Of a DNA stretch of 64,000 bases, positions 32,420 through 58,993 are shown piece after piece (position 1 is the first letter of the stretch; each line of letters starts with the position of its first letter). The DNA lies in NCBI GenBank assembly GCA_963724215.1, contig CAVRTZ010000008.1, positions 130,378-194,377 on the forward strand, read 5' to 3'. The position numbers were made by a program, and so were the translations under genes. The notes under the pieces were generated by a model. The model saw only the letters and a list, made by a program, of their open reading frames with translations. It was not told the origin of the DNA and made no database searches. This DNA comes from an uncultured Ignavibacteria bacterium. Its GTDB lineage: Bacteria > Bacteroidota > Ignavibacteria > UBA10030 > SZUA-254.

Positions 32420-32639
32420 AGGCCCCCCTGGCGGGAACCACCCGTCGATCCCCGCGAAGACGATCTTGCATACCCCCTGAGCCCACCCGCACCAGCCGCA
32501 GTCCCGTTGATGAAAAATGTGACAACGGGCATCATCAGTCATGAAAGTGCCGTTACCGGTGTAATTTGATGTGATCCCGGTCACACCCACTCCGCGAAAT
32601 TTTGTATCGCCGTCTGTTTTTCTCTACCTATAAGGACTG

Positions 32640-32763
32640 CATGGAGTGCGGGTTTTAGGGAGCCCGTCAAGCCCGGGTATATCCCAATGATCGGCAATAC
32701 GCGGAATTGTCCCTGTTACCGGGGACGGGGCGGGCTGTTTTTACAACCGATGAGGATGGAGCG
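32640..32763 (+). promoter_or_regulatory. conserved structured 5' leader, copy 2
   Basis: CGGGTT-TTAGGGA-GCCCG (32649-32666, with one G-U in place of A-U), a GGG-N5-CCC hairpin, and GTCCC-TGTTACC-GGGGAC with the same stem but a different loop. A GGATGGAG SD precedes the ATG. Confidence 0.3.
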
Positions 32764-34467: not shown

Positions 34468-34474
34468 GGTTATC

Positions 34475-36798: not shown

Positions 36799-37401
36799 AT
36801 GAAAATATTCTCAATTCTTTCCGGGCTCATCCTCCTCGCCGCGGGACCTCTCGCCGGCCAGGACGCCTGGCAGATCGACCGGTCGCACAGCTCCATCGAG
36901 TTCGCCGTCACCCACATGGTGATCGCCGAAGCGACCGGCCGTTTCAAGGACTTCGACGTCAAGATGACATCGACCGGCGAGGATTTCGCGGCAGCCGGGA
37001 TCGAGGCCGTCATCAAGACCGCCAGCATCGCCACCGACAACGAATACCGGGACAACGACCTGCACGGCGCCGAATTCTTCGACGTGGAGAAATACCCCGA
37101 GGCCACCTTCAAGAGCACGAAGTTCGAGAAGACGGGCGACGGCAGGTATAAAATCACGGGGAACCTCACGATCCGCGATACGACGAAGCCGGTCGTGCTC
37201 GACGCGACCTACTTCGGCAGCATCACCGATGCGAAGGGCGGCGTGCGCATGGGCTGGAAGGCCGAAACCACCATCGACCGTTTCGATTTCGGCGTCAAAT
37301 GGAACAAGGCGCTCGAAGCGGGCGGGCTTGTGGTTTCGAAGGACGTCAGGCTCACCATCCGGGTGGAGATGAAAAAAGTCCAGCCGGGAAAAAAGGAATA
37401 A
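36799..37401 (+). CDS. YceI-family periplasmic polyisoprenoid-binding protein
   Basis: 200-aa ORF with a signal peptide. It carries IDRSHSSIEFAVTHMVIAEATGRF, RDNDLHGAEFFDVEKYPEATF and ITGNLTIRDTTKPV, the canonical YceI blocks. Confidence 0.9.
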   Translation: MKIFSILSGLILLAAGPLAGQDAWQIDRSHSSIEFAVTHMVIAEATGRFKDFDVKMTSTGEDFAAAGIEAVIKTASIATDNEYRDNDLHGAEFFDVEKYPEATFKSTKFEKTGDGRYKITGNLTIRDTTKPVVLDATYFGSITDAKGGVRMGWKAETTIDRFDFGVKWNKALEAGGLVVSKDVRLTIRVEMKKVQPGKKE

Positions 37402-37430
37402 CCCCGCAGTCCCAATCATCCGGGAAAGCC

Positions 37431-38360
37431 ATGGCCGGCGAAACGATGAACAGGATCTTCATGCTACCGGACGAGAAGGAGATGGAGGCGTCCGGGAAGA
37501 CCACCATCCTGGAGGTCTCCCTCGATTCCGGCATCCCCCACGTCCACGTCTGCGGCGGGAAGGCGCGATGCTCCACCTGCCGTGTGGTGGTGGTCTCCGG
37601 GCTCGACCGTTGTTCTCCGCGCCAGGGCGCCGAAGAAAAACTCGCCGGCAGGCTCAACTTCGGGCCCCACGTGCGCCTCGCCTGCCAGACCACGGTCAGC
37701 GGCGACGTGACCGTCCGCCGGACGGTCCTGGACACGCTCGACATCCAGCTCTCCAACCAGACGGGTCCGGGCCTCAAGCTCGGGTCGGTCGGGGAGGAGA
37801 AACACCTCGCGATCCTCTTCGCGGACATCGGGGACTACACGTCGTTCGCGGAGTCGCTCCCCGCCTATGACGTGATCCACGCCCTCCGGCGGTACTTCAT
37901 CACGATGGGAAGGGTGATCGACGCGCACGGCGGCCGCATCAACGACTACGTCGGCGACGGGATCATGGCCCTCTTCGGCATCGACGACGCCCCCGATCCG
38001 GTCTACCGCGCGATCCGCGCCGGCCTCGAGATGCTCTGGGAGGTCGATTCCCTCAATCCCTACCTGCAGGCGATGTACCGGCGGACGTTCCGCGTCCGCA
38101 TCGGCATTCACTACGGTCCGGTGGTGATCGGCACGATCGGCATGGCCGACATGGAGAAGATGGCCGTGATCGGAGACGCGGTGAACGTCGCGGAAAGGAT
38201 CGAGGACGCCAACAAACAGACGGGCACGTCGATGCTCGTCTCCGACGCTGCGCTGCGCGAGGTCTTCGGCCGGGTCCGCACGCGGGAATCGTTCAGGGAC
38301 GTCTCCCTCAGGGGGAAACGCGCCCGCTTCACACTTCACGAGGTCTCCGAGGTCCTCTAG
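37431..38360 (+). CDS. [2Fe-2S] ferredoxin domain fused to a class III adenylate/guanylate cyclase
   Basis: ORF 37299..38360 trimmed to MAGETMNRIF. The N-terminal domain has CGGKARCSTC...LAC (C-x5-C-x2-C...C). The cyclase domain has LAILFADIGDYTSF, YVGDGIMALFG, IGIHYGPVVIG and VIGDAVNVAERIE. Confidence 0.85.
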   Translation: MAGETMNRIFMLPDEKEMEASGKTTILEVSLDSGIPHVHVCGGKARCSTCRVVVVSGLDRCSPRQGAEEKLAGRLNFGPHVRLACQTTVSGDVTVRRTVLDTLDIQLSNQTGPGLKLGSVGEEKHLAILFADIGDYTSFAESLPAYDVIHALRRYFITMGRVIDAHGGRINDYVGDGIMALFGIDDAPDPVYRAIRAGLEMLWEVDSLNPYLQAMYRRTFRVRIGIHYGPVVIGTIGMADMEKMAVIGDAVNVAERIEDANKQTGTSMLVSDAALREVFGRVRTRESFRDVSLRGKRARFTLHEVSEVL

Positions 38361-38364
38361 GGCG

Positions 38365-39075
38365 ATGAAGAACCTCTTCGAAATACCGCATTGCGAGACC
38401 TGCCTGCCGCGCCTCCATTCAGTGTTCAGCGTGCTTTCGCAGGAGGGACTCGCGAAGCTCCAGCTCCACAAGGGATGCAATTTCCACCGGAGCGGCCAGG
38501 TGCTCTTCTACGAGGGCGACTATCCTTCCGGCCTCTACTGCATCAACCAGGGCAAGGTCAAGCTGACGAAGGTCGGTGAGGCCGGCCGCGAACAGATCGT
38601 CCGGCTGGCCCGCGAGGGGGACGTCGTCGGCTATCGCGCGCTCGTGAGCGGGACGCCGTACGAACTCTCGGCCACGGTCCTCGAGGACGCGTCGATCTGC
38701 TTCATCCCCCGCCAGACGTTCCACGTCCTGATGGCGGAAAACCCCGCGCTCACCGCGCGGATCATGCGGCAGCTTACGCAGGACCTCGCGCGCGCAGAAC
38801 AGAAACAGGTGTCGCTCGCGCAGAAACAGGTGAGGGAGCGCCTCGCCGAAACGCTCCTGATGCTGAAGGAATTCTACGGCACCGAGGACGACCACCACAC
38901 CCTCCGGAGCAAGCTCTCCAGGGAAGACATCGCCAACTACATCGGCACGGCGACGGAGACGGTCATCCGGCTCCTGTCGGAATTCGCGAAGGAGGGGATC
39001 ATCGCGCTGGAGGGGAAGAAGATCAAGATCGTGGACCTCCGCACCCTGCGCGACGCGGCGCGCCTGCCGGACTAG
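38365..39075 (+). CDS. Crp/Fnr family transcriptional regulator
   Basis: 236-aa ORF starting 4 nt after the cyclase stop. It has a cNMP-binding beta-roll (GQVLFYEGDYPSGLYCINQGKVKL) and a C-terminal HTH (SREDIANYIGTATETVIRLLSEF). An N-terminal HCETC is present. Confidence 0.85.
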   Translation: MKNLFEIPHCETCLPRLHSVFSVLSQEGLAKLQLHKGCNFHRSGQVLFYEGDYPSGLYCINQGKVKLTKVGEAGREQIVRLAREGDVVGYRALVSGTPYELSATVLEDASICFIPRQTFHVLMAENPALTARIMRQLTQDLARAEQKQVSLAQKQVRERLAETLLMLKEFYGTEDDHHTLRSKLSREDIANYIGTATETVIRLLSEFAKEGIIALEGKKIKIVDLRTLRDAARLPD

Positions 39076-39263
39076 CGACACCCCGCCATCCCCCCCCCTC
39101 CTGGGGGACATCCCCCCCCAAACTCTCCTGCTCGGGATCCCCGACCACGTGGTCGAACGGACAATCCGTCATTCCTCCATCGCACAACACGATATCCGTC
39201 ATCATTCAGACATCTGCAGGTGGCCGGCGAAAATCATTCATTTTCGCCGATTCGGGATGCCGA

Positions 39264-39279
39264 CATGATATAAATCATG
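39264..39279 (+). promoter_or_regulatory. candidate Crp/Fnr-family operator upstream of the cytochrome cluster
   Basis: Perfect palindrome CATGAT-ATAA-ATCATG. Its core TGAT-N4-ATCA matches the FNR-type consensus TTGAT-N4-ATCAA at 8 of 10 positions. Its centre is 66 nt upstream of the ATG at 39338. Confidence 0.4.
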
Positions 39280-39337
39280 TTTTAACCTTTCCAAGATCAT
39301 ACCCCCCGGCCCGTCGATTGCTTATTTTTTATACAGG

Positions 39338-40156
39338 ATGTTGAAGAAAACGACAAATATTAACAAGATCCTGGTACCGGTCGATCTCACGGACGCCTCA
39401 TTGTGCGCCGTTGAGGCCGCCCTGACCCTTTCAAGGGAAAAAAAATCCCAGATCTACCTTCTCCACGTCATCACCCGGGCCGACGACCGGCCGGGCGCCG
39501 GAGGGGAGACTGACCCGGAGCTGCAGAAAAAATACCGCGCGATGGAAGAGTTCTTCCTGAAGAAAGTCAGGCAGCAATCCAGGTTCGCCTGCATCGTCCG
39601 CACGGGGACGCCCGCTGTGGAGATCCTGACGTTCGCGAGGGAGGAAGGCGTCGACGTCATCGTGCTCCCCGTCGGGGCCGATCTGACCGGGGACGCCGTC
39701 CGGCCCGGGGGCATCGCCGACCAGATCGTCCGCAACGCCTCGGTCCCCGTCATGGTCGTCAAGCCGGGACAGGCCGCGCGGAAACTCACCGGTACCGTGC
39801 ATTGGGAAAAGGAAGAGAGGAACTCCATGCAACACGACGAACGCTATCTCCAGGAAATACGGCAAAGGGTGTGCGCGAAGTGCATCGACCGCACGCCGAC
39901 GGGTCTCTGCGTGACCTCCACCTACGATTCCTGCGCCATCAATAAATACCTGCCGGAAATCATTGACATCGTCCTCACGACCGGGGGCGACGACCTCGAC
40001 GCCTACGTCGCACGGTTGAGGGAAAAGGTCTGCGCCGTCTGCCAGCACCAGTCGCCCGACGGGCGCTGCGACGTGCGGGACGACGTCGAATGCGCCCTCG
40101 ACCGGTATTTCCCCATCGTCGTCGAGGCGATCCAGGAAGTGAAACACTCGCGATGA
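39338..40156 (+). CDS. universal stress protein (UspA) domain fused to a tandem four-Cys module
   Basis: 272-aa ORF. The USP fold spans aa 1-145 (ILVPVDLTDAS ... VIVLPVG ... VRNASVPVMVV). Two repeats of VCAxC-x8-C-x7-CA follow (aa 165-270). Confidence 0.75.
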   Translation: MLKKTTNINKILVPVDLTDASLCAVEAALTLSREKKSQIYLLHVITRADDRPGAGGETDPELQKKYRAMEEFFLKKVRQQSRFACIVRTGTPAVEILTFAREEGVDVIVLPVGADLTGDAVRPGGIADQIVRNASVPVMVVKPGQAARKLTGTVHWEKEERNSMQHDERYLQEIRQRVCAKCIDRTPTGLCVTSTYDSCAINKYLPEIIDIVLTTGGDDLDAYVARLREKVCAVCQHQSPDGRCDVRDDVECALDRYFPIVVEAIQEVKHSR

Positions 40157-40163
40157 ACCGCTC

Positions 40164-42521
40164 ATGAAACCGAACGATCAATCAGCCGGAAACGCCGCAC
40201 GCAACCCCCTCGCGCGGCTGATGCTCATGGTCGCGTTCGCGGCCGTGGCGTTTCTCCTGGCCGCGTTCTGGATCCTGGCAGGCCCGGCGAAGGCCCAGTC
40301 GAAGGACGACTGCCTGGCGTGCCACTCCGACGCTTCGCTCTCGACAGAGAGAAACGGGGCGCCGGTGTCGCTCCACGTCGACGCCGCCGTCCTCGACCGG
40401 TCGCCGCACCGGAAACTCGTCTGCGTCGCCTGCCACGCCGGCTTCGACCCCAACGAGCTCCCGCACAGGAAAACCATACGGCCGGTGGAATGCCTCACCT
40501 GCCACAAGGGCTCGGAATTGAAGCACGCGTTCCATCCCCAGATGGCGAAGTCGATCGCCGCCGGGGAAGAGCCTTCGGTCTCGTGCAAGGACTGTCACGG
40601 GACGCACAACGTCGTCTCGCCCAAAGAGAAGGAATCGCCGTTTAACCGCGCGAACATGTCCGAGGGGTGCGGCCGGTGCCACGGCGACGTCGTCGGGCAG
40701 TACGCTGCTTCGGCGCATGGCGGCGCGTTTTCGGCCGGCGTGAAAGGCGCGCCGGAGTGCCTCGGCTGCCACGGCCACGACGTCACGGCGTCGAGCCATC
40801 CGGACGACACCGTCGGCATGAAGCTCGCGCAGGAACGCCTCTGCCTCAGCTGTCACCTCGACAACCCCGACGTGAGGGAAAAAACCTCGCCTTCGGCGGG
40901 CTTCATCGCCGCCTACGAGCAGAGCGTCCACGGGCGGGCCCTGATGAACGGGAACGCCAGGGCGCCCAACTGCGTCGATTGCCACGGCAGCCACCAGATG
41001 GCGAAGGGTTACGACCCGGCGGCGAAGGTCAGCAAGATGAACATCGCCGAAACCTGTTCCAAGTGCCACGAAGACATTGCGAACGTCTACAACGAGAGCG
41101 CGCACGGCAAGGCGGTCGCCAAGGGCGTGGCCGACGCCCCCACCTGCACGAACTGCCACGGGGAACACACGATCCTCAGGCACAACGACCCGAAATCGCC
41201 GGTCGCGAAGCAGAACCTCTCGGCGCAGGTCTGCTCGCCGTGCCACAGCTCGGTCGCCCTCTCGACCAAGTACGGCATCGAGAGCGACCGGTTCAAGACC
41301 TTCTCCGACAGCTACCACGGCCTCGCCATCCGCGGCGGTTCGATCGAGGTCGCCAATTGCGCCAGCTGCCACGGGACGCACAACATCAAGTCGTCGAGCG
41401 ACTCCACCTCGATGATCAGCCGGGCGAACCTCGCGAAGACCTGCGGCAGCTGCCACCCCGGGGCGAACCAGCGGTTCACCGTCGGCAAGGTCCACGTGGA
41501 CGAATCCTCCCGCGCGGAGGAACCGATGCTCTACTGGATCACGACCGCCTACATCCTCCTGATCGTGGTCACCATCGGCGGGATGCTGGTCCACAACGCC
41601 CTCGACTTCGTGAAGAAATCTCGCCGGAAACTGATGATCCGCCGCGGACTCATCCCCCATCCGCACACGAGCCACGAGCTCTACCCGAGGATGAGCAGGA
41701 ACGAACGGTTCCAGCACGCGGCCCTCCTGTTGAGCTTCATGACGCTGGTCATCACAGGGTTCATGCTCCGGTTCCCCGAGGTCTGGTGGGTGCAGTGGAT
41801 CAGGTCGATCAGCGGATCGGTGTTCGACACCCGCAGCGTCATCCACCGCGTCGCCGGCGTGGTGATGCTTACCGCGAGCTTTTACCACGTCTGGTACATC
41901 CTCTTCACGGTCCCGGGGCGGCGGCTGGTGTTCGACATGTTCCCGCGGATCCAGGACGCGAGGGACGCCGTCGCGATGGTGAGGTACAACCTCGGTCTTT
42001 CCGCGGAGCGCCCGCTCTTCGACCGGTTCTGCTACATCGAGAAGGCCGAATACTGGGCCCTCATCTGGGGGACGTTCGTCATGGGCGCCACGGGCCTCGT
42101 CATGTGGTTCGACAACACGTTCATCGGTCTCTTCACGAAGCTGGGGTACGACGTCGCCCGCACGATCCATTACTACGAGGCGTGGCTGGCGACGCTCGCC
42201 ATCATCGTCTGGCACTTCTATTTCGTGATCTTCAACCCGGACGTTTATCCGCTGAACGTGGCGTTCTGGAAGGGCACGCTCACCGAAGAGGAGATGGAGG
42301 AGGACCATCCGCTCGAGCTGCAGCGGATCGTGGCCGGCAGGACGAGTGAGGACCTTCCCGCCGAAGAGATGCGGGGAGAGAAACTCGAAGACGGCGATGG
42401 CGCCGGCAGGGCGGCGAAAAAACAGACGACCGATGTGAAACCTCCGGCCGACGGGAAACCTCCGGTCCAGGGAAAACCGCCCGCCGGGAATCCCGACAAC
42501 CGCGGAGGCGGAAAGAAATGA
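40164..42521 (+). CDS. CbcL-like fusion: membrane-anchored 13-haem cytochrome c + FdnI/HydC-type dihaem cytochrome b domain
   Basis: 785-aa ORF. It has an N-terminal TM anchor, 13 CXXCH motifs (CLACH, CVACH, CLTCH, CKDCH, CGRCH, CLGCH, CLSCH, CVDCH, CSKCH, CTNCH, CSPCH, CASCH, CGSCH) and a linker TM helix. A 4-TM domain follows with His pairs IHRVAGVVMLTASFYH and IHYYEAWLATLAIIVWH and loop YIEKAEYW. The tail is Lys/Pro/Gly-rich. Confidence 0.85.
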   Translation: MKPNDQSAGNAARNPLARLMLMVAFAAVAFLLAAFWILAGPAKAQSKDDCLACHSDASLSTERNGAPVSLHVDAAVLDRSPHRKLVCVACHAGFDPNELPHRKTIRPVECLTCHKGSELKHAFHPQMAKSIAAGEEPSVSCKDCHGTHNVVSPKEKESPFNRANMSEGCGRCHGDVVGQYAASAHGGAFSAGVKGAPECLGCHGHDVTASSHPDDTVGMKLAQERLCLSCHLDNPDVREKTSPSAGFIAAYEQSVHGRALMNGNARAPNCVDCHGSHQMAKGYDPAAKVSKMNIAETCSKCHEDIANVYNESAHGKAVAKGVADAPTCTNCHGEHTILRHNDPKSPVAKQNLSAQVCSPCHSSVALSTKYGIESDRFKTFSDSYHGLAIRGGSIEVANCASCHGTHNIKSSSDSTSMISRANLAKTCGSCHPGANQRFTVGKVHVDESSRAEEPMLYWITTAYILLIVVTIGGMLVHNALDFVKKSRRKLMIRRGLIPHPHTSHELYPRMSRNERFQHAALLLSFMTLVITGFMLRFPEVWWVQWIRSISGSVFDTRSVIHRVAGVVMLTASFYHVWYILFTVPGRRLVFDMFPRIQDARDAVAMVRYNLGLSAERPLFDRFCYIEKAEYWALIWGTFVMGATGLVMWFDNTFIGLFTKLGYDVARTIHYYEAWLATLAIIVWHFYFVIFNPDVYPLNVAFWKGTLTEEEMEEDHPLELQRIVAGRTSEDLPAEEMRGEKLEDGDGAGRAAKKQTTDVKPPADGKPPVQGKPPAGNPDNRGGGKK

Positions 42522-44536
42522 AACGGACGATCGTCGTCGCCGCGGCGTTCCTGTTCCTCTTCGCGTTGAGTGCGACCGCGCAGGAGGACGCCGACTGCCT
42601 CTCGTGCCACGAGGACAGATCGCTGGAGGGGACCCGCGGCGGGAGGACGATGTCGGTGTACGTCAACGTGAAAACGCACGCCGGCTCGATCCACGGCGCG
42701 AACGGGTGCGTCTCGTGCCACGCCGACCTGGCGGGGAAGGAACTCCCCCACGGGGAGGACGTCGCCCCCGTCGACTGCGGCAGCTGCCACAGCGCGGAGC
42801 AGGAGGAGGAATCGAAATCGCTCCACGGCCAGGCCGCCGCGCGGGGCGACAAGCTCGCGCCCCTCTGCAAGGACTGCCACGGGACCCACAACGTGCTTCC
42901 GAAATCGAACCGGAACTCCCCGATTTCGCCCCTGAAAATCCCGTTCCTCTGCGGGAAGTGCCACCAGGAGGGTTCGCCGGTCCAGCGCCAGCGGGTGATC
43001 CACCAGGACAACATCATCGAGAATTTCTCGGAGAGCATCCACGGCGAGGGGCTCCTCAGGAAAGGGCTCATCGTGGCTCCCAACTGCGCCTCCTGCCACA
43101 CCGGGCACTCGATCCTCCCCCACACGAATCCCGCGTCGTCGATCGCGAGGAAGAACATCGCCTCGACCTGCACGAAATGCCACGCCGAGATCGAGGCGGT
43201 GCACCGCAAGGTGATCAAGGGGGAGCTCTGGGAGAAGGAGAACCACGTCCTCCCGGCGTGCGTGGACTGCCACCAGCCGCACAAGATCCGGAAGGTCTTC
43301 TACGCGCAGGGCATGGCCGACCGCGACTGTCTCAGTTGCCACGAAAAACCGGAACTGAAGTCCTCCCGCGACGCTCATTCGCTGACCGTGAAGGTTTCGG
43401 AGCTCACGGATTCGAGGCACGTGAAAATATCGTGCAGCCAGTGCCACGCGCAGGTGAACGCATCGAAGGTGAGGCCCTGCGAGACCATCACGGAAAAGGT
43501 CGACTGCGCGTCGTGCCACGCCGAGGTTGGCCAGCAGTTCAACGTCAGCCTCCACGGCAGGCTCGTCGCGAACAAGGACCCGAACGGGCCGACCTGCAAG
43601 GAATGCCACGGCCGGCACGGCGTGAAGGGGAAACAGGACCCGGCGTCGGGCACGTTCCCCACGAACGTCCCCGACCTCTGCGCGCGGTGCCACCGCGAGG
43701 GGAAGAAGGCGGCGCTGCTCTACACGGGGGCCGAGCACCAGATCATCGAGCGGTACACCGAGAGCATCCACGGCAAGGGGCTGATGAAGAGCGGCCTCAC
43801 CGTGACCGCGATGTGCAGCAACTGCCACACGCCCCACAGCGTGCTGCCGCGCAGCGACACGCTCTCGAGCGTCAACCCGCGGAACCTCCCGAAGACGTGC
43901 GGAAAATGCCACCACGGCATCGAGGAACAGTTCCAGAAGAGCGTCCATTCGAAGCTCGTCTCGAAATCCGACAAGGAGCTCCCGGTGTGCGACGACTGCC
44001 ACACCGCGCACAAGATCAAACGCGCGGACTCGCAGGGGTTCAAGCTCGAAATCATGCAGCAGTGCGGCCGCTGCCACGAGAAGATCGCGGAGACCTACTT
44101 CGACACCTACCACGGCAAAGTGTCCCAGCTCGGCTATACGAAGACGGCGAAGTGCTACGACTGCCACGGCGCCCACGACATCCTCCCGGTGGCCGACCCG
44201 AAATCGCACCTGAGCCACGACAACGTGGTCGGGACCTGCCAGAAGTGCCACGAGGGCGCTACGCGCCGGTTCGCGGGATACCTGACCCACGCCACGCACC
44301 ACGACCCGGAGAAATACCCCTTCCTCTTCTGGACGTTCTGGGGGATGACGTCGCTCCTGGTCGGGACGTTCCTCTTCGGAGGCGTGCACACGCTCCTCTG
44401 GCTCCCGCGGGCGTTCCAATACCGGAAATTGCTCAAGGCGAAGCACCTGGAGAAGATGAGCGGCGGGCCGCCCACGGCCCCTGAAATGGATGAACCCGGC
44501 AACGCGGGCGGCGGGAAGGAAGGGCGGGATGGATAA
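42518..44536 (+). CDS. 19-haem c-type cytochrome with C-terminal TM helix
   Basis: 672-aa ORF whose start overlaps the previous stop by 4 nt. It has a signal peptide, 19 CXXCH motifs counted, recurrent S(I/V/L)HG spacers, and a C-terminal helix YPFLFWTFWGMTSLLVGTFLFGGVH. Confidence 0.85.
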   Translation: MKRTIVVAAAFLFLFALSATAQEDADCLSCHEDRSLEGTRGGRTMSVYVNVKTHAGSIHGANGCVSCHADLAGKELPHGEDVAPVDCGSCHSAEQEEESKSLHGQAAARGDKLAPLCKDCHGTHNVLPKSNRNSPISPLKIPFLCGKCHQEGSPVQRQRVIHQDNIIENFSESIHGEGLLRKGLIVAPNCASCHTGHSILPHTNPASSIARKNIASTCTKCHAEIEAVHRKVIKGELWEKENHVLPACVDCHQPHKIRKVFYAQGMADRDCLSCHEKPELKSSRDAHSLTVKVSELTDSRHVKISCSQCHAQVNASKVRPCETITEKVDCASCHAEVGQQFNVSLHGRLVANKDPNGPTCKECHGRHGVKGKQDPASGTFPTNVPDLCARCHREGKKAALLYTGAEHQIIERYTESIHGKGLMKSGLTVTAMCSNCHTPHSVLPRSDTLSSVNPRNLPKTCGKCHHGIEEQFQKSVHSKLVSKSDKELPVCDDCHTAHKIKRADSQGFKLEIMQQCGRCHEKIAETYFDTYHGKVSQLGYTKTAKCYDCHGAHDILPVADPKSHLSHDNVVGTCQKCHEGATRRFAGYLTHATHHDPEKYPFLFWTFWGMTSLLVGTFLFGGVHTLLWLPRAFQYRKLLKAKHLEKMSGGPPTAPEMDEPGNAGGGKEGRDG

Positions 44537-45518
44537 GCACGACGAGGGCATGAAAAAACCGGGCGGGGAATCCACGCCCCTGAAATCGAAGCCGGAACGA
44601 CCGGCGCCCGCGCAATCCGCGCCGTCGCACGGCGCCCCGGCGCCCGCGGCGCCCGCGACATCCTCCCATCCCGTCGAGAGCGCCCCCCCCGCCGAGCGGC
44701 AGTTCCTCCGCTTCACGCGGCTCAACAGGGCCCTGCACATCTTCCTCATCATGAGCTTCCTGACACTCGCGCTCACCGGGCTGACGCTGAAGTTTTCCTA
44801 CACCGGCTGGGCGGTGGTGCTCTCGCACCTGCTCGGCGGGTTCGAGAGCGCCGGCTACCTCCACCGCTTCGCGGCGGTGATCATGTTCGCCGTCTTCACC
44901 ATCCACGTCACCGACGTCCTCAGGATGAAGAAGCGGGAGGGCCGCACCTGGAGGACGATGATCTTCAGCGCCGATTCGATGATGTTCAACGGGAAGGACC
45001 TCTCGGACTTCATCGGGTCGGTGAAGTGGTTCGTGGGGAAGGGCCCGCGCCCGCAGTTCGGCCGGTGGACCTACTGGGAGAAGTTCGACTACTTCGCCGT
45101 CTTCTGGGGCGTGGCGGTCATCGGCTCCACGGGGCTGATGCTCTGGTTCCCGGAGTTCTTCACGAATTTCATGCCGGGCTCGCTGCTCAACGTCGCCACG
45201 ATCATCCACAGCGACGAGGCCCTGCTCGCCGTCGGGTTCATCTTCACGGTGCATTTCTTCAACACCCACCTCCGCCCGGAGAAATTCCCGATGGACATCG
45301 TCATCTTCACGGGAAGGATGGACGTCGACGAGTTCGCCCTCGACAAGCCCGCGGAGTACGAGGAGCTCGTGAAATCGGGCCGGCTCGAGTCCCGCCTGGT
45401 CGAGCCGTACCAGCCGATCGTCATCCGGGCGGTCAAGGCGTTCGGGTGGACAGCGCTGATCATCGGGTTCAGCGTGGTGATCTGGATCATCTACGCGATG
45501 CTGTTTGCCTACCGGTAA
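44529..45518 (+). CDS. FdnI/HydC-type dihaem cytochrome b membrane subunit
   Basis: ORF 44490..45518 trimmed to the ATG at 44529, an 8-nt overlap with the upstream stop. It has a Pro/Ala-rich N-tail and four TM helices. The His pattern is LNRALH, LHRFAAVIMFAVFTIH, IHSDEALLAVGFIFTVH, with loop YWEKFDYF. It is a paralogue of the C-terminal domain of 40164..42521. Confidence 0.8.
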   Translation: MDKHDEGMKKPGGESTPLKSKPERPAPAQSAPSHGAPAPAAPATSSHPVESAPPAERQFLRFTRLNRALHIFLIMSFLTLALTGLTLKFSYTGWAVVLSHLLGGFESAGYLHRFAAVIMFAVFTIHVTDVLRMKKREGRTWRTMIFSADSMMFNGKDLSDFIGSVKWFVGKGPRPQFGRWTYWEKFDYFAVFWGVAVIGSTGLMLWFPEFFTNFMPGSLLNVATIIHSDEALLAVGFIFTVHFFNTHLRPEKFPMDIVIFTGRMDVDEFALDKPAEYEELVKSGRLESRLVEPYQPIVIRAVKAFGWTALIIGFSVVIWIIYAMLFAYR

Positions 45519-45614
45519 ACGGCGATGCCGTCATTCCATTCACGGCGGCCCCGGTGTTTGGATTCAACGCCGGAATCATTACATTGACAACTGTTTCCAG
45601 CCAACGACCCCAGA

Positions 45615-47114
45615 ATGAAACGCATCTTTCCCGCATCGTTCTATAACCTCACCACGCTCATCGGGGCGGCCGTCTCCGGCGTCAGCTTCGGCCTGATCCT
45701 GTTCCTGATGCTCGTCGAGTTCATGTCCGCCAACGAGCACCCGTACATGGGCATCATCACGTTCGTGATCCTCCCGGTTTTCCTCATGATGGGGATCGGG
45801 ATGATGGTGTTCGGCGTGATGCGCGAGCACCGGCGCGAGCGGCTCGGCAAGCCCCACGGCCTGCACCTGCCGCAGATCGACCTGAACAACCCGAGGCACC
45901 GCACCGCGTTCGTGAGCGTTTCGGTGGGGGGCATCGCGCTCCTCCTGTTCTCGGCGTTCGGCAGCTTCAAGGCGTACGAGTACACCGAGTCCGACCAGTT
46001 CTGCGGGGAGACGTGCCACACCGTGATGGAGCCGGAGTACACCGCGTACCAGTTCTCCCCCCATGCGAGGGTCGGCTGCGTACAGTGCCACATCGGGTCC
46101 GGGGCGGACTGGTTCGTCAAGTCGAAGATCTCCGGCAGCTACCAGCTCTACGCCGTCGCCTTCAACAAGTACCCGAAGCCGATCCCCACGCCGATCGAGA
46201 ACCTCCGGCCCGCGCAGGAGACGTGCGAACAGTGCCACTGGCCGAAACATTTCTTCAGCGAAAAACAGCGGACGAATACCTACTACCTCGCCGACGAAAA
46301 GAACACGCGCTGGGACATCAATCTGCTGATGAAGATCGGCGGCGGCAACGTCGAGGCGGGTCCCACATCCGGGATCCACTGGCACATGAACATCGCGCAC
46401 GAGGTCACGTACAAGGCCCTCGACCGCGAGCGGCAGGTGATCCCGTGGGTCAGGTCCAGGACGCCCGACGGCACGGAGACGATCTACCGGAGCACCGAGG
46501 TCGACGTCCCCGAGGATTCGCTCGCGGCGGCGTTCACGCGCCGGATGGACTGCATCGACTGCCACAACCGGCCGACGCACATCTACCATCCCCCCGCGCG
46601 CTCGGTGAACCACGTGATGTCGCTCGGCTGGATCAGCCCGTCGCTGCCGTCGGTGAAATCGGTGAGCGTCGAGGCCCTCGAGGCCGGATACGAAACGCGG
46701 CAGGGCGCGCTCGACACCATCCGGCTCACGATGGAGGGCTATTACCGGGACAACCACCCGGAGGTCTTCGAGACGAAAAAGCCCACGCTCGACAGCGCGA
46801 TCGCCGAAGTGCAGAAGATCTACAACAGGAACTACTTCCCCGAGATGAAGACAGACTGGAAGAAGTTCCCCGACAACCTCGGGCACCTCTACTATAACGG
46901 ATGTTTCCGCTGCCACGACGGCAAGCACGTCAACGAGGCGGGAAAGGTGCTCTCGAAGGACTGCAACACCTGCCACACGATCCTCTCGCAGAAATTCGAA
47001 GACGACACGCTCCGGATCTCCCTCGAAGGCGTCGATTACAGGCATCCCGTCGACATCGGCGACGCGTGGAAGGAAATGAACTGCAGCGACTGTCACGCGC
47101 CCGACGCACCATAG
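45615..47114 (+). CDS. inner-membrane heptahaem cytochrome, NapC/NirT-related, ImcH-like
   Basis: 499-aa ORF with three N-terminal TM helices. It has 7 haem sites: CGETCH (CX3CH, followed by TVM as in the NapC/NirT first site), CVQCH, CEQCH, CIDCH, CFRCH, CNTCH, CSDCH. Confidence 0.75.
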   Translation: MKRIFPASFYNLTTLIGAAVSGVSFGLILFLMLVEFMSANEHPYMGIITFVILPVFLMMGIGMMVFGVMREHRRERLGKPHGLHLPQIDLNNPRHRTAFVSVSVGGIALLLFSAFGSFKAYEYTESDQFCGETCHTVMEPEYTAYQFSPHARVGCVQCHIGSGADWFVKSKISGSYQLYAVAFNKYPKPIPTPIENLRPAQETCEQCHWPKHFFSEKQRTNTYYLADEKNTRWDINLLMKIGGGNVEAGPTSGIHWHMNIAHEVTYKALDRERQVIPWVRSRTPDGTETIYRSTEVDVPEDSLAAAFTRRMDCIDCHNRPTHIYHPPARSVNHVMSLGWISPSLPSVKSVSVEALEAGYETRQGALDTIRLTMEGYYRDNHPEVFETKKPTLDSAIAEVQKIYNRNYFPEMKTDWKKFPDNLGHLYYNGCFRCHDGKHVNEAGKVLSKDCNTCHTILSQKFEDDTLRISLEGVDYRHPVDIGDAWKEMNCSDCHAPDAP

Positions 47115-47141
47115 TCCCAACAGGCATCATAGGACAGAACG

Positions 47142-47600
47142 ATGAACCCCACCAGCAACCAGCCCGCTCCCGACGCCGGGAAACGAGACTTCCTGAAATA
47201 CGCACTGGGGGGAGGATTGCTCGCCTTTTTCGCGTCGATCTTCTATCCCGTCCTCGCCTACCTGAAACCCCCGGTCCAGGCGGAGGTGGAGGTGAAATCG
47301 GTGAACGCGGGGAAGAAGGACGACATCCCCCGCGACTCGGGGAAGATCATCAAGTTCGGCACCAGGCCGGTGATCCTCGTCCGGACGGCCGACGACGAGC
47401 TCAAGGCGTTCGACGCCACCTGCACCCACCTCGACTGCACGGTGCAGTTCAACAAGGACATCGGGATGATCTGGTGCGCCTGCCACAACGGCAAGTACGA
47501 CCTCACCGGGCGAAACGTCGCGGGTCCGCCCCCAAGGCCGCTCACGCCGTACAAGGTCATCATCCAGGGCGATGAAATCCTGATCGCGAAAAACGCATGA
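47142..47600 (+). CDS. Rieske [2Fe-2S] subunit of a cytochrome bc/b6f-type complex
   Basis: 152-aa ORF. It has a Tat-like KRDFLK plus TM anchor and cluster boxes CTHLDC and CACHNG. Confidence 0.9.
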
Positions 47601-48691
47601 AGAACGCACTGAACAAAGCCTACGACTGGGTCAACGAGCGGGTACACCTCGAAGACCTGGTGAACTTCATGGGGAAGAAGTATGTTCCCGTGCACCGTCA
47701 TTCCGTCTGGTACTACTTCGGGGGCGTGACGCTCTTCCTCTTCATCATCCAGGTCGTCACGGGGATCATGCTGCTCCTCTATTATAAGGGGAGCGAGGAC
47801 CTGGCATTCGAAAGCATCCAGTTCATCATGTCGAAGGTGGAGTTCGGCTGGCTGATCCGGTCGATCCACAGCTGGGCGGCGAACCTCTTCATCCTCTCGG
47901 CGATGATCCACATGTTCAGCGTGTTCTTCGAAAGGACCTACCGCAAACCGCGCGAGATCACCTGGCTCACCGGGATGTTGATGCTCTTCCTCGGGATGGG
48001 GTTCGGGTTCAGCGGGTACCTGCTCCCCTGGAACGAACTGGCGTTCTTCGCCACGAAGGTCGGGACCGACATCGCCGGCGTCGTGCCGTTCATCGGCGAA
48101 CCGATACTGGAATTCCTCAGGAGCGGCCCCGACGTCACCGGCGCGACCCTCTCCAGGTTCTTCGGGTTCCACGTCGCGGTCTTCCCCGGCCTCTTCACCG
48201 TCCTCCTCGGGATCCACCTCGTGCTGGTCCAGCGGCAGGGGATGAGCGAGCCGATGGGCCACGGCACGACGGACGAGGGCGGGGCGCCGCCCATGGCGAT
48301 GAAGAAAATGCCCTTCTTCCCGAACTTCCTCTACCGGGACCTCCTGTTGTGGCTCATCGTCCTGAACCTGCTCGCCGTCCTCGCGGTGCTCTTCCCGTGG
48401 GAGCTGGGCGTGAAGGCCGACCCGTTCGCGTCAGCCCCCGCAGGCATCAAGCCGGAGTGGTACTTCATGTTCATGTTCCAGACGCTCAAGTACCTGCCTG
48501 CGAACGTCCTGGTCTTCGAGGGCGAGATGCTCGGCATCATGTTCTTCGGCCTCGCCGGGCTCCTCTGGACGCTGGTCCCCTTCTGGGACAGGAGCAGCGC
48601 GAGGGGGAAGAAGAGCCGGCTCGTCACCTACGGCGGCCTCATCGCCGTCATGTTCATCATCGTCATGACCATTATCGGCTGGCTCTCATGA
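47597..48691 (+). CDS. cytochrome b6 fused to subunit IV (cytochrome b of the Rieske/b complex)
   Basis: 364-aa ORF with an ATGA overlap with the Rieske stop. Helix B is [16 protein letters not shown] (H-x13-H) and helix D is [17 protein letters not shown] (H-x14-H, b6/Bacillus-type). The PEWY motif (KPEWYFMF) lies in the C-terminal half. Confidence 0.9.
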
Positions 48692-50217
48692 AGACACGAA
48701 CCGTCATCTTCGCGGCGGCGCTGCTGCTCACCGCCACCGGCGGGTTCCCGCTCCTCCCCGCGCCCGCGCTTCACGCCCAATCCGCCGACGCCCTGTTCCG
48801 GACCGCGACCGCCAGACCGGACAACTGCTTCACCTGCCACAAGGCCCTCGGCGAGGTGGCGGGGGTGAAGTACACGGCCGACATCCACTATAAAAAGGGT
48901 ATCTCCTGCGCCGGTTGCCACGGGGGCGACCCTACGACCGACGACCAGGAAAAGTCCATGTCCGCCGACCACGGGTTCCTGGGTGTACCGAAGGGCGACG
49001 ACGTCTCGAAGACCTGCCAGCGGTGCCACTCAGACGCGCAGGTGATGAAGGTGAACTTCAAGTCGTCGGTGGGGCTGAACCAGATGGAGGACCTCGCGGC
49101 CAGCGTCCACGGGAAAATGGCCGTCTCGGGGAAGGAAAAGATGGTCCAGTGCGTCACCTGCCACAGCGTCCACGACATCAGGAGCGTAAAGGACCCCCAG
49201 TCCCCGGTCAACCACCTGAACGTCAACAGGACCTGCGCGACCTGCCACTCGAGCGCACTCTTCATGAGGTCGTACAACCAGGCCCTGCCGATCGACCAGG
49301 AGGAGAAATACAAGACGAGCGTCCACGGGATGAAGCTTGCGAAGGGCGACGCGAAGGTGGCCGTCTGCTCGAGCTGCCACGGCAGCCACGACATCCTCAA
49401 GGCCGTCGACGCGAAATCGCACGTCAACGCGATCAACCTGCCCGCCACCTGCGGCACCTGCCACGCGAACGCGGAGTACATGAAGGAGTATTCCATCTCC
49501 ACCGACCAGCTCGCGGAGTTCCGCACGAGCGTCCACGGCAAGGCCCTGCTCGAGAAGCACGACCTCGGCGCCCCCTCGTGCAACGATTGCCACGGCAACC
49601 ACGGCGCGGCGCCGCCGGAGGTGGCGTCGATCTCGAAAGTGTGCGGCACGTGCCACGCGATGAACGCGTCCCTCTTCGCCGAAAGCCCTCACAAGAAGGC
49701 CTACGACGAACTCGGCCTTCCGGAGTGCGAGACGTGCCACGGCAACCACGCGATCATCAACGCCACCGACGCCCTCCTCGGGGTCTCGGACGAGGCGGTC
49801 TGCTCCCGCTGCCATTCGCAAAGCGACAACCCGAAGGGGTTCCAGGCGGCGGCGCTCATGCGCATCATGATCGACTCGCTCGAACTTGCCGAACACAGGG
49901 CCGATTCGCTCGTGTCGAACGCCGAGCAGAAGGGGATGGAAATCTCCGAGGCGAAGTTCAAGCTCCGCGACATCCGGCAGGCAAGACTGCTGTCGCGCAC
50001 GGCGGTGCACTCGTTCAACGAGCCGAAATTCGCGGAGGTCGTGAACCAGGGGATCGCCGTCGCCGGCGTGGTGGCGGTGCAGGGGCAGGCGAGCATCGAC
50101 GAGTACTACTTCCGGCGGTACGGGCTGGGCGTGGCCACGCTGATCATCACGATCGTGGCGATCGCGCTCTACATGACCATTAAACGAATCGAGAAGAAAC
50201 AGGCCGAAAAGGCCTGA
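48688..50217 (+). CDS. 11-haem c-type cytochrome with helical stalk and C-terminal TM anchor (in the cytochrome c1/f position)
   Basis: ORF 48349..50217 trimmed to the ATG at 48688, an ATGA overlap with the cytochrome b stop. It has signal peptide [19 protein letters not shown], 11 CXXCH motifs, a long charged helical region, then [19 protein letters not shown]. Confidence 0.85.
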
Positions 50218-50222
50218 CCGGT

Positions 50223-50244
50223 GGCCCCGCCTTCGCGCGGGGCC
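50223..50244. terminator. GC hairpin between convergent genes (possible bidirectional terminator)
   Basis: GGCCCCGC-CTTCGC-GCGGGGCC forms an 8-bp perfect stem, 6 nt after the stop at 50217 and 4 nt before the convergent stop at 50248. There is no U-tract. Confidence 0.5.
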
Positions 50245-50247: not shown

Positions 50248-51612
50248 TTACTTCACATACACCGTCTTGACGTTCACGAACTCCCGTATCCCGTGAACGC
50301 CCAGTTCCCTCCCGTATCCCGAATTCTTCACTCCTCCGAACGGAAGCCGCACGTCGGACGACACCATCTCGTTGATGAACACCGATCCCGCCTCCAGATC
50401 TTCGATGAACAGCGCCTTTTCCCTTTCGTCGTTCGTCCACGCGCTCGAGCCGAGTCCGAACGGCGAATCATTCGCGAGCGTCACCGCCTCTTCGGCGCCG
50501 GCGACCGTGAAAAGAAGCGCCACGGGCCCGAAGAACTCCTCCCGGTACGCGGGGGAGTCGTGAGGGATGTTGCTCAACACGGTGGGAGGGTAGAAGTTGC
50601 CTTCCCCGGGGAGCCGTTCGCCTCCGAGCAACAATCGGGCGCCCTTCCGAACCGATTTCTTCACCTGCCGGTCGAGGTCCTCGAGAATCTCCGGCGTGGC
50701 GAGGGGCCCGACGCCGGTGGCGGGGTCCATCGGGTCCCCGGTTTTCAGCTTCTTCATTTCTTCGACGAACCGTTCCGTGAATGCCGCTGCGACGTCCTGA
50801 TGAATGATGAACCGCTTCGCCGCGATGCACGATTGCCCGTTGTTGACGACGCGCGCCTTCACGGCGGTCGAGACGGCGGCGTCCAGGTCGGCGGTCGGCA
50901 TCACCAAAAATGGATCGCTCCCGCCCAATTCCATCACGCAGGTCTTGATCGACGACCCCGCGACTCCCCCCACCTCGCGGCCGGCCATGTCGCTTCCGGT
51001 CAGCGTCACCGCCTTGATCCTGGGGTCTTCGATCACCTTCGCGGTGCCGGCGGAAGGAAGGAGGAGGGTCTGGAACACTCCCTCGGGGAACCCCGCCCTG
51101 CGGATGATCTCCTCGATCGCGAGCGCGCATTGCGGGACGTTCGAGGCGTGCTTCAGGAGACACACGTTCCCCGCCATGATCGCCGGCGCGGCGAACCGGA
51201 ACACCTGCCAGAAGGGGAAGTTCCACGGCATGATCGCCAGCACCGGACCGAGCGGTTCGTAGCGCACATAACTTCTCGTCGCGGCCGTCGGTACCACGTC
51301 GTCAGCCAGGAATTTCTCCGCCTCGTCAGCGTAGAACCGGCAGGCCCACGCGCACTTCGAGGCCTCGGCGATCGCGGCCGTGAAGAGCTTCCCCATCTCG
51401 AGCGTCATCAGCTTCGCGAACGATTCCTTCCCGGATTCCAGGATCTCGCCCGCCTTCCGCATCAGGGCGGCGCGTTCGGCGAACGTGGTCCTGTGGTGGG
51501 AGGCGAAACGAGTTCGGGCCTTCTCAATTTTTTGTTCGAGGTCCTTGTCGCTGATCTGCCGGAAGGATTTCAGGAGCTCTCCGGTGGCGGGGTTGACGGT
51601 CTGGATCGGCAT
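50248..51612 (-). CDS. NAD(P)-dependent aldehyde dehydrogenase, succinate-semialdehyde dehydrogenase-like
   Basis: 454-aa intact ORF. ALDH blocks are PWNFPFWQ, VTLTGS, VMELGGSDP (catalytic Glu), NNGQSCIAAKR (catalytic Cys) and EEFFGPV. Confidence 0.9.
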   Translation of the reverse strand: MPIQTVNPATGELLKSFRQISDKDLEQKIEKARTRFASHHRTTFAERAALMRKAGEILESGKESFAKLMTLEMGKLFTAAIAEASKCAWACRFYADEAEKFLADDVVPTAATRSYVRYEPLGPVLAIMPWNFPFWQVFRFAAPAIMAGNVCLLKHASNVPQCALAIEEIIRRAGFPEGVFQTLLLPSAGTAKVIEDPRIKAVTLTGSDMAGREVGGVAGSSIKTCVMELGGSDPFLVMPTADLDAAVSTAVKARVVNNGQSCIAAKRFIIHQDVAAAFTERFVEEMKKLKTGDPMDPATGVGPLATPEILEDLDRQVKKSVRKGARLLLGGERLPGEGNFYPPTVLSNIPHDSPAYREEFFGPVALLFTVAGAEEAVTLANDSPFGLGSSAWTNDEREKALFIEDLEAGSVFINEMVSSDVRLPFGGVKNSGYGRELGVHGIREFVNVKTVYVK

Positions 51613-51760: not shown

Positions 51761-52605
51761 ATGCGACTCCCGATGGAAAAAATCATACGCGTGGGGCACA
51801 GCCCGGACCCCGACGACGCCTTCATGTTCTACGGCCTGGCCAGCGGCAGGGTCAAGCTCGAGGGGATCAGGATCGAGCACATGCTCGAGGACATCCAGTC
51901 GCTGAACGCCCGCGCGATGAAGGGGGAGCTGGAGGTCACCGCGATCTCGGCCCACGCCTATCCCTACGTCCAGGACAAATACTGGATCATGCGCACCGGC
52001 GCGAGCATGGGGGACGGGTACGGCCCGGTGCTCATCTCGAAAAAGTACAAGACCCTCGCGGAGTTGAAGGGAAAGACCGTCGGAACGCCCGGGCCCCTCA
52101 CCACCGCGACGCTCCTCTTCAGGATGTTCACCGAGGGGATCGAAACATCGACCGTCCCTTCGACCAGTTGATGCCGATGATCGACGCCGGGAGGCTCGAC
52201 GCGGGCGTCGTGATCCACGAAGGGCAGATTACGTATCAGGAACAGGGATACCATAAGATCCTCGACTTCGGAGAGTTCTGGCGCGACGAGACGAAGGGGC
52301 TCCCCCTCCCCCTCGGCCTCGACGTGGTCCGGAAGGATCTCGGGGAAAAGATGGCCCGCGACCTGTCCGTGGGCCTGCGGGAGAGCATCGACTACGGCTA
52401 CGAGCACCAGGAAGAATCGATCCCCTACGCGCTCGAGTGGGGCCGCGGAATCGACGCGGACAAGGGGGAAACATTCGTGAAGATGTACGTCAGCGACCTG
52501 ACGATCGACATGGGGGAGCGGGGAGAAGCGGGGCTGAAGGAACTGTTCCGCCGCGGCGGCGAAAAAGTCGGGTTGCCGGCGGTGAAAGAATTCAGGCTGG
52601 TGTAA
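51761..52605 (+). pseudogene. mqnD: MqnA/MqnD-fold menaquinone (futalosine pathway) protein, MqnD-like; one frame break
   Basis: IRVGHSPDPDDAFMFYGL and LEDIQSLNARAMKGELEVTAISAHAYP come first. After the C3 run at 52156-52158, VPFDQLMPMIDAGRLDAGVVIHEGQITY continues in the next frame to the stop at 52605. A separate MqnA is present, hence the MqnD-like call. Confidence 0.7.
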
Positions 52606-52606
52606 C

Positions 52607-53712: not shown

Positions 53713-53716
53713 ATCG

Positions 53717-55589: not shown

Positions 55590-55664
55590 CTGTGCGTCGA
55601 TTTCTTCTGTCGAATTCCTGTCGAGTCTCCGGACCGGGGGCGTCCGGTTCTTGTCATTTCCAGA

Positions 55665-57484: not shown

Positions 57485-57489
57485 CGCGG

Positions 57490-58876: not shown

Positions 58877-58993
58877 AGGGGGCGGCTTTCCGGGTGATGG
58901 TTGGAAAAATATACCCAAAAGGGGAGATGCAATCAAGAAACCGTCCCACGGCCGGGTGACCGGATATTTTCAGGCCGCATGCGTGGGAGGATG

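Follow-up and report, generated by a model that had tools for sequence, protein, structure and literature searches.

A Rieske/cytochrome b module with a putative 11-haem cytochrome subunit in a quinol oxidase gene cluster of an uncultured Ignavibacteria bacterium

Introduction

A 64-kb stretch of the genome of an uncultured Ignavibacteria bacterium (positions 130,378 to 194,377 of contig CAVRTZ010000008.1, assembly GCA_963724215.1; GTDB lineage Bacteria; Bacteroidota; Ignavibacteria; UBA10030; SZUA-254), hereafter the window, carries genes for a Rieske iron-sulfur protein, a cytochrome b and an 11-haem c-type cytochrome (here MHC11), directly downstream of a gene for a heptahaem protein resembling ImcH of Geobacter. 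What kind of quinol-oxidizing system do these genes encode, and where would its electrons go? A sequence-only reading of the locus had described the ImcH-like protein as directly coupled to the Rieske/b core, an ImcH-type gate in one unit with a complex whose c1/f position is taken by the 11-haem protein, and had matched the combination to no described complex. Our analysis leads to a different arrangement of the same parts. We consider it fairly probable, from the encoded proteins and their relatives, that the three genes at 47142-50217 specify a three-subunit Rieske/cytochrome b complex acting as a menaquinol:multihaem-cytochrome c oxidoreductase, and that the ImcH-like protein is one of several parallel quinol oxidases encoded beside it.

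The Rieske/cytochrome b core

The genes in question are the following; coordinates are positions in the window, and gene and motif calls come from open reading frames (ORFs) and their translations.

45615..47114, + strand: ImcH-like heptahaem protein, 499 aa (motifs, hydropathy, Pfam/NCBIfam)
47142..47600, + strand: Rieske [2Fe-2S] protein, 152 aa (KRDFLK motif resembling a twin-arginine translocation (Tat) signal, transmembrane (TM) segment, both cluster boxes, Pfam)
47597..48691, + strand: cytochrome b, fused b6 and subunit IV, 364 aa, about 7 TM helices (Pfam, NCBIfam, PDB alignment)
48688..50217, + strand: MHC11, 11-haem c-type cytochrome, 509 aa (11 CxxCH motifs, signal peptide, C-terminal anchor)

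The last three genes begin 27 nt past the end of the ImcH-like gene, and ATGA overlaps occur at both the Rieske/cytochrome b and the cytochrome b/MHC11 junctions, the latter as the sequence-only reading had it. The Rieske protein has the KRDFLK motif, a TM segment at residues 20-41 and the cluster boxes CTHLDC (94-99) and CACHNG (112-117), with the disulfide Cys present; it matches the Pfam Rieske family with an E value of 1.9e-13, and its boxes are at least 95% conserved in 74 orthologues. It gave no match to NF040968, the NCBIfam model named for ExtO; that 416-position model matched a multihaem protein instead.

The single ORF of the cytochrome b carries both Pfam Cytochrome_B (E 1.5e-48) and Cytochrom_B_C. 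Its haem ligands are the pairs His91/His105 (x13 spacing) and His192/His207 (x14 spacing), all four at least 95% conserved in the orthologues, and its Qo motif PEWY (286-289) is invariant among them. The motif WYYFGG (at 38), also conserved in the orthologues, aligns to FYCLGG of spinach cytochrome b6, so that a Tyr stands in place of the Cys that binds haem ci (b6 Cys35 position). We placed the protein by the ranking of hidden Markov model (HMM) and PDB scores. The best PDB match is cytochrome b6 (201 bits), with actinobacterial structures also among the matches, and the NCBIfam b6 model (232 bits) ranks above the model for ExtP (NF040969), on which the protein reaches 199 bits against a cut-off of 290. 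The earlier description of a Rieske protein with a fused b6/subunit IV cytochrome b, a PEWY motif and no haem-ci Cys is thus borne out in every element. All the sequence features that mark the bc1/b6f/bcc superfamily are found, namely the Rieske boxes, the two His pairs for the b haems, PEWY and a co-encoded anchored c-type subunit. Of those of a strict b6f complex, only the His-x14-His spacing in helix D is present; the haem-ci Cys, separate petB and petD genes and cytochrome f are absent.

MHC11, a candidate for the c1/f position

MHC11 carries 11 CxxCH motifs together with a signal-like N-terminus, and its C-terminal TM helix (476-501) gives it the same anchor topology as cytochromes c1 and f. 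The ORF list had put its start at a GTG at 48349 (622 aa, inside the cytochrome b gene); homologues and the signal peptide place it at the ATG at 48688. An AlphaFold2 (AF2) model built from 86 sequences has a predicted local distance difference test (pLDDT) score of 86 and a predicted template modelling (pTM) score of 0.70, and contains long helices at 382-414, 420-442 and 445-508, while an earlier model from 14 sequences (pLDDT 57) was set aside. Signal peptide, helical stalk and C-terminal anchor had all been predicted from the sequence, and all were recovered.

The haems are laid out as an N-terminal trihaem part followed by haems 4-11 in four tandem dihaem modules of the form SvHG...CxxCHxxH...CxxCH, each with two extra conserved His. 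The 19-haem and the CbcL-like proteins encoded further upstream (see below) contain five and four copies of the same module, respectively, and this shared architecture suggests that MHC11 is a wire-type cytochrome. In the 86-sequence alignment there are 10 invariant His outside the haem motifs for the 11 haems, together with five invariant Met (M91, M120, M265, M391, M417), for which reason one or two haems of the trihaem part may have His/Met ligation and a higher potential. A profile search of the PDB returned only marginal haem-motif matches to NrfA and NrfB, and no solved sequence relative. By gene content, the position that c1 and f occupy in other complexes has MHC11, a non-homologous protein, as its sole candidate. 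The earlier assignment of MHC11 to that position agrees with this, and with the occurrence of its gene directly after that of cytochrome b in 72 of 72 loci.

Distribution and gene order

Thousands of relatives of MHC11 exist; the best 120, at 58-88% identity, stem from metagenomes or metagenome-assembled genomes (MAGs) labelled Ignavibacteriae, Ignavibacteriales or Bacteroidota. The cytochrome b is more conserved, its relatives being 74-95% identical. When one genome per GTDB species was scanned, at least 552 species genomes were found to carry a relative, and the best 80 of these are all MAGs of Ignavibacteria-like Bacteroidota. Synteny was determined by tblastn of the window proteins onto related loci (designated here by L numbers), counting only loci with enough flanking DNA. 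The order Rieske, cytochrome b, MHC11 is kept in each of those 72 loci, which belong to different species-level genomes; the figure includes as intact five loci that were first scored as lacking cytochrome b, in which the genes abut. The signatures of the three proteins (cluster boxes, four b-haem His, PEWY, 11 CxxCH) are at least 95% conserved in 74-81 orthologues, and motif conservation across 53-81 orthologues is far beyond chance.

The ImcH-like gene behaves differently. It lies directly upstream of the Rieske gene in 41 of the 60 loci that could be assessed, with gaps of 9-237 nt, but is separated from it in seven by a 2.9-kb insert of three genes, and is absent from 12 that keep Rieske-b-MHC11 intact. 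For six of the loci without it (L014, L024, L027, L065, L068, L076) no ImcH-like gene was found within about 8.4 kb upstream, and in the two whose upstream ORFs were read (L014, L024) the operon begins at the Rieske gene, after unrelated genes. In L015 imcH is found downstream of MHC11. The three inserted genes, for an anchored octahaem cytochrome, a Tat-signal 4Fe-4S protein and an NrfD-family membrane protein, occur in L029 (5670-8367), L020, L031, L037, L041, L052 and L073, and represent a fourth type of quinol:cytochrome module in this neighbourhood. Because the ImcH-like gene is adjacent in only some loci and split off or missing in others, it is not a dedicated partner of the Rieske/b genes. 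It appears rather to be a frequent yet dispensable neighbour, one of several quinol-oxidizing modules encoded side by side.

The ImcH-like heptahaem protein

A hydropathy scan of the ImcH-like protein gives three hydrophobic segments (residues 11-40, 42-70 and 96-120). Directly after them comes the first of seven haem motifs, which is of the CX3CH type (C130-G-E-T-C-H135, then T-V-M138), and six CX2CH motifs follow at 155, 204, 313, 430, 450 and 490; the motifs are at least 95% conserved in 53 orthologues. Residues 97-186 match the Pfam NapC/NirT family (PF03264, E 5.9e-10), and the NCBIfam NrfH model TIGR03153 is matched with E 5e-15, below the model cut-off. In NrfH the motif reads CXXCHXM, with the Met at +2 from the His, whereas here the Met is at +3. 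The first haem site had been described as NapC/NirT-like and followed by Met: the NapC/NirT region and the Met are both there, but the motif is CX3CH and the register is not that of NrfH.

As the sequence-only reading proposed, three TM segments and seven haem sites agree with how ImcH homologues have been defined in print (three TM helices, one atypical CX3CH, six CX2CH, 495-519 aa; PMC6295460; PMC4251993). Compared by published description, Geobacter ImcH (GSU3259), likewise about 500 aa long, shares with the window protein the three N-terminal TM helices, the CX3CH next to the membrane, the six CX2CH motifs and a NapC/NirT/NrfH-like region (PMC4251993, PMC6295460). Relatives fall into 775 clusters (50% identity) at E<=1e-30, and full-length ones at 37-46% identity include proteins named NapC/NirT from Deltaproteobacteria/Myxococcota MAGs, a distribution that fits the one published for ImcH. 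The Geobacter protein is a stand-alone, electroneutral quinol oxidase encoded by a monocistronic gene, with haems at -150 to -358 mV (PMC4251993; bioRxiv 10.1101/2023.05.03.539133), while the window gene lies inside a multi-module operon beside Rieske/b.

Gene cluster and operon limits

On the + strand, ORF reading shows an unbroken run of seven genes from 40164 to 50217, six for cytochromes plus the Rieske gene. The features that surround the four genes already listed are these:

37299..40156, + strand: candidate regulatory genes, encoding a Fer2-fused class III nucleotide cyclase, a Crp/Fnr-type regulator and a Usp protein (Pfam)
40164..42521, + strand: CbcL-like protein, 785 aa, with a periplasmic domain of 13 CxxCH motifs and a C-terminal dihaem b domain of the Ni_hydr_CYTB/FdnI/HydC type
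42518..44536, + strand: 19-haem cytochrome, 672 aa, with 19 CxxCH motifs and a C-terminal hydrophobic helix; its start overlaps the CbcL-like stop by 4 nt
44490..45518, + strand: FdnI-like membrane cytochrome b (alternative start 44529; Pfam/NCBIfam and synteny)
45519..45614, + strand: intergenic spacer of 96 nt before the imcH-like gene
50222..50243, no strand assigned: GC-rich hairpin GGCCCCGC...GCGGGGCC, read from the sequence, between the MHC11 stop and the convergent gene
50248-51612, - strand: convergent aldehyde dehydrogenase (Aldedh) gene (ORF/Pfam)

The spacer at 45519-45614 might have divided two independently regulated units. A consensus scan found no promoter-like or terminator-like site in it, its predicted RNA folds no better than shuffled sequences (z = -0.22), and the objection that there are two units is therefore not supported. 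In the related locus L001 the orthologous spacer measures 12 nt. The transcription unit would exceed the four genes, reaching upstream through the split b/c quinol oxidase and the CbcL-like gene, with the four genes as its 3' half and the GC-rich hairpin as its likely end in the window. The commonest full order among the related loci is the same (CbcL-like, 19-haem, FdnI-like b, ImcH-like, Rieske, cytochrome b, MHC11), with short spacers or overlaps.

The architecture of the CbcL-like protein is that of the Geobacter CbcL / MtrH / MtoC quinol oxidases, and many related loci keep its gene as the first of the cluster. The C-terminal hydrophobic helix of the 19-haem protein contains a His and is followed by a separate 4-TM FdnI-like b protein (42518-45518), so that the pair looks like a split CbcL design and resembles CbcBA of Geobacter. 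In CbcBA the anchor of the c subunit is thought to supply a b-haem ligand.

The cyclase, Crp/Fnr and Usp trio upstream of the cytochrome genes is also present in L002 and L003, and in several other loci the Usp gene heads the cluster; the Usp-domain protein upstream of the operon has a Cys-rich C-terminal extension. Together the three may form a redox-sensing cyclic nucleotide monophosphate circuit controlling the cytochrome cluster. Farther upstream in the window (29008-36046) a two-gene unit is duplicated in tandem. Each copy has a gene for a DUF1800 protein (598 aa in one, 586 aa in the other) and behind it one for a DUF1501 protein (535 and 523 aa) with a type IX secretion C-terminal sorting domain; the two copies have nearly identical N-termini.

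Comparison with described complexes

In the literature searched no paper named a Rieske/b complex with an 11-haem cytochrome in Ignavibacteria, although subscription-only literature may hold an earlier mention, and both cultured type strains of the class have been reported without Rieske/b complexes (PMC3362086, PMC3534657). The earlier statement that no described complex matches stands to that extent, but its prior art, di- to octahaem partners in Actinobacteria, Campylobacterota and anammox bacteria, was incomplete: to be added are the 10- and 12-haem cytochromes of Geobacter Cbc6/ExtMNOPQS and, for anammox bacteria, the membrane anchoring of hexa- or octahaem subunits at the place of cytochrome f. 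The anammox complexes (Kuenenia Kuste4569-4574 and Kustd1480-1485) likewise combine a b6-like cytochrome b, a subunit IV-like protein and a Rieske protein, use menaquinone, and have, instead of cytochrome f, a c-type cytochrome of six or eight haems that is anchored in the membrane and has long helices (bioRxiv 10.1101/2025.06.25.661457). In the window, however, b6 and subunit IV are fused, the c subunit has 11 haems and belongs to another sequence family, and there is no NAD(P) oxidoreductase subunit, no separate octahaem protein like hydroxylamine oxidoreductase (HAO) and no haem-ci/cN Cys. The genomic context of the window type is one of CbcL, ImcH and porin-cytochrome genes rather than nitrogen metabolism.

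The Cbc6/ExtMNOPQS cluster of Geobacter sulfurreducens (GSU2930-2935) resembles the window in that the Rieske protein ExtO, the b6-like ExtP and the small membrane protein ExtQ are encoded with 12-, 10- and 4-haem cytochromes, beside a porin-like gene, in an organism capable of extracellular electron transfer (PMC5877670; bioRxiv 10.1101/2021.04.15.440034). It differs in that b and subunit IV are split and that the cluster comes with a rhodanese and the selenoprotein ExtKL. The window cytochrome b scores below the ExtP cut-off and lower on ExtP than on b6, and MHC11 gave no match to the ExtN and ExtS models (NCBIfam, E<=0.01; no ExtM model was among the families returned). For these reasons we regard the window complex as a separate variant and not as a member of Cbc6.

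With b6f and the Chlorobi-type Rieske/b complexes the window shares helix D His-x14-His, PEWY and a 7-TM b6 plus subunit IV core, and its best solved match is b6. Green sulfur bacteria also have a fused b6/subunit IV-like cytochrome b and use menaquinone. The window differs from this group by the Tyr at the b6 Cys35 position, by having neither cytochrome f nor small subunits, and by the 11-haem subunit in its operon. In the bcc/bc complexes of Actinobacteria and Campylobacterota, which oxidize menaquinol, the Rieske/b core is combined with a dihaem c subunit instead of the monohaem c1. That subunit consists of two class I haem domains and donates to oxidases in supercomplexes, in contrast to the eleven class III-type haems of MHC11. 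The Rieske/cytochrome b of Caldithrix abyssi (Cabys_2558-2556), also of the Fibrobacterota-Chlorobiota-Bacteroidota (FCB) group, adjoins epsilon-Hao and nap genes and has no cytochrome c1 gene nearby; a multihaem acceptor (NapM or epsilon-Hao) has been proposed for it (PMC5317091). There the partners would be a tetrahaem or an octahaem protein in nitrate/nitrite respiration, whereas the window-type partner is a dedicated anchored 11-haem protein among genes for extracellular electron transfer. The kind of complex is known, then, from anammox bacteria, Geobacter Cbc6 and Caldithrix, and the 11-haem form of Ignavibacteria appears to be a separate variant of it.

Genes downstream of MHC11

The genes that follow MHC11 in related loci give an indication of where its electrons might go. 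In 25 of 54 loci they encode a tetrahaem c554-like protein, a haem-free secreted protein of about 440 aa, a 14-haem cytochrome, an 18-haem lipoprotein and CcmF. The haem-free protein has no Pfam or NCBIfam match but shows an excess of beta-amphipathic periodicity in a beta-amphipathicity test, and is a porin candidate. The 18-haem lipoprotein has four GSu_C4xC__C2xCH domains, a composition that we take to be that of Geobacter outer-surface reductases. The conduit-type cluster lies 0.2-7 kb downstream of MHC11 (for example in L077, L021, L015 and L038). This is the layout of a Geobacter-type porin-cytochrome conduit, and its presence after MHC11 in these loci points to extracellular electron transfer; such conduits have been reported in Ignavibacteria before (PMC7399161). 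Alternative complex III follows MHC11 in eight of the 54 loci and other genes in 21; nine of the loci surveyed have in this place a class I cytochrome c of four domains (Pfam Cytochrom_C/CBB3).

Proposed function and alternative explanations

From gene content, motifs, conservation and synteny we infer how the complex may assemble, that it may run a Q-cycle, in which direction electrons may flow and what the final acceptor may be. Quinol would be oxidized at the PEWY-type Qo site. One electron would pass through the Rieske cluster to MHC11, held at the periplasmic face by its C-terminal helix as cytochromes c1 and f are, and the other over both b haems to a Qi site that has no haem ci, a Q-cycle that would make quinol oxidation proton-motive. 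MHC11 would then serve as a haem wire to periplasmic multihaem carriers, and in many relatives these could hand the electrons to an outer-membrane porin-cytochrome conduit, i.e., to extracellular electron transfer. The ImcH-like protein, the CbcL-like protein and the split 19-haem/b pair would be co-transcribed parallel quinol:cytochrome oxidases, neither subunits nor gates of the Rieske/b complex, and would let electrons leave the quinone pool by routes that are less electrogenic or not electrogenic at all, probably for different acceptor potentials as in Geobacter, where ImcH, CbcL and CbcBA form a potential-tiered system (bioRxiv 10.1101/2021.04.15.440034; PMC13591261). A wider proposal, which we put forward only tentatively, is that Rieske/b-MHC11 is the proton-motive Q-cycle entry module of trans-envelope extracellular electron transfer in Ignavibacteria, with the ImcH-, CbcL- and CbcBA-like oxidases as lower-yield bypasses selected by acceptor potential.

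Several observations weigh against this interpretation. Multihaem wires with bis-His haems usually have low potentials (those of ImcH titrate at -150 to -358 mV), and a low-potential MHC11 would be an awkward acceptor for the Rieske cluster unless some of its haems are His/Met. The futalosine/ubiD-type quinone genes beside the cluster are frameshifted in the assembly, so any statement on the quinone of this organism is weakened. Six of them (mqnA, two radical-SAM mqn genes, one of which is fused to an MqnA domain, ubiD, ubiX and ubiA) lie at 51761-58900 on both strands, the number of single-base frameshifts against the 88-95% related genome L002 ranging from one to four or more per gene. The indels are not in homopolymers, and the neighbouring 13 kb with the cytochrome and regulatory genes shows none against the same genome; this could be a local assembly error or real pseudogenization. 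Finally, the window itself has no outer-membrane conduit after MHC11 but the convergent aldehyde dehydrogenase gene, and elsewhere alternative complex III or the class I cytochrome c takes the downstream place, so the output may not be extracellular in all species.

The idea that the ImcH-like protein is an integral partner or gate, the four proteins forming one machine with two quinol sites, draws on the close spacing of imcH and the Rieske gene in 41 of 60 loci and in the window, and on the fact that no terminator was detected between the units. We nevertheless find it quite improbable. A dozen loci dispense with ImcH while keeping the other three genes, seven have the complete octahaem/FeS/NrfD module in between, and L015 has imcH on the far side of MHC11. 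The CbcL-like and split b/c modules are encoded alongside in just this manner, as would suit a set of oxidases acting in parallel, and Geobacter ImcH works alone from its own transcript (PMC4251993), the purified protein oxidizing menadiol (bioRxiv 10.1101/2023.05.03.539133). A reading of MHC11 as a catalytic enzyme similar to HAO or epsilon-Hao, anchored to Rieske/b and reducing, for example, nitrite, hydroxylamine or NO with its electrons as might Kuste4574 of the anammox R/b-3 complex or the Caldithrix epsilon-Hao, takes its starting point from Foldseek, which ranks Kuenenia hydroxylamine oxidoreductase 4n4j first among the structures similar to the AF2 model (E 5.8e-3, prob 1.0, 406 columns). 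Since the invariant extra His number 10 and the haems 11, one haem might be left with five ligands, and some homologues carry NrfA-type Pfam matches or an NrfA annotation. The structural match is weak, however (TM-score 0.36, identity 16%). No HAO-family match was found in Pfam or NCBIfam and no CxxCK motif in the protein, the PDB profile search gave nothing beyond the marginal NrfA/NrfB matches mentioned above, and eight of the 11 haems sit in the regular dihaem repeat common to the neighbouring wire-type cytochromes. Because of this repeat architecture above all, we hold a catalytic role to be very improbable.

The two other alternatives concern the fate or direction of the electrons. The complex could be a general menaquinol:cytochrome c reductase feeding periplasmic or membrane terminal reductases (cbb3/caa3 oxidases; nitrite, NO or N2O reductases), with MHC11 as a long-range donor to soluble carriers. 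The class I cytochrome c or alternative complex III after MHC11 in nine and eight loci, respectively, would suit this role, as would a window without downstream conduit genes, and Campylobacterota use Rieske/b complexes in the respiration of nitrate, nitrite and N2O, as has been proposed for Caldithrix too (PMC5317091). Yet the porin-cytochrome cluster is the commonest downstream context, the upstream ImcH-like and CbcL-like genes are markers of extracellular electron transfer, and the window cluster encodes no catalytic subunit of a reductase or oxidase, so that we judge a general reductase unlikely. Reverse operation of bc1 has been proposed for acidophilic iron oxidizers, and electrons from extracellular Fe(II) or a cathode might similarly enter through the cytochromes, with Rieske/b working backwards to reduce quinone. 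The sequence fixes no direction of electron flow. The composition of the 18-haem lipoprotein, presumably of the Geobacter outer-surface reductase type, speaks against uptake, as does the fact that no Cyc2 or MtoA-type oxidizer genes were seen in the surveyed loci. Proteins of the CbcL/MtoC type occur in iron reducers and iron oxidizers alike, but ImcH homologues have so far been tied only to quinol oxidation (PMC6295460), and we give electron uptake a very slim chance. The reading that we prefer remains that of a Rieske/b-MHC11 complex that would pass electrons from menaquinol to multihaem cytochromes, beside parallel quinol oxidases.

Significance

Little or no energy is believed to be saved when quinol is oxidized by the characterized enzymes of extracellular electron transfer (CymA, ImcH, CbcL, CbcBA). 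If the proposed function is true, the wiring of a Rieske/b complex to a chain of multihaem cytochromes could double the proton-to-electron yield in extracellular electron transfer, and would explain how lineages other than Geobacter live from metal or electrode reduction. Ignavibacteria-like Bacteroidota are common in sediments, aquifers, bioreactors and anode biofilms, and the module, present in at least 552 species-level genomes, could serve as a genomic marker. It would also be a third independent case, beside the anammox complexes and Geobacter Cbc6, of a large multihaem cytochrome at the c1/f position, and such a replacement would bear on ideas about ancestral bc complexes.

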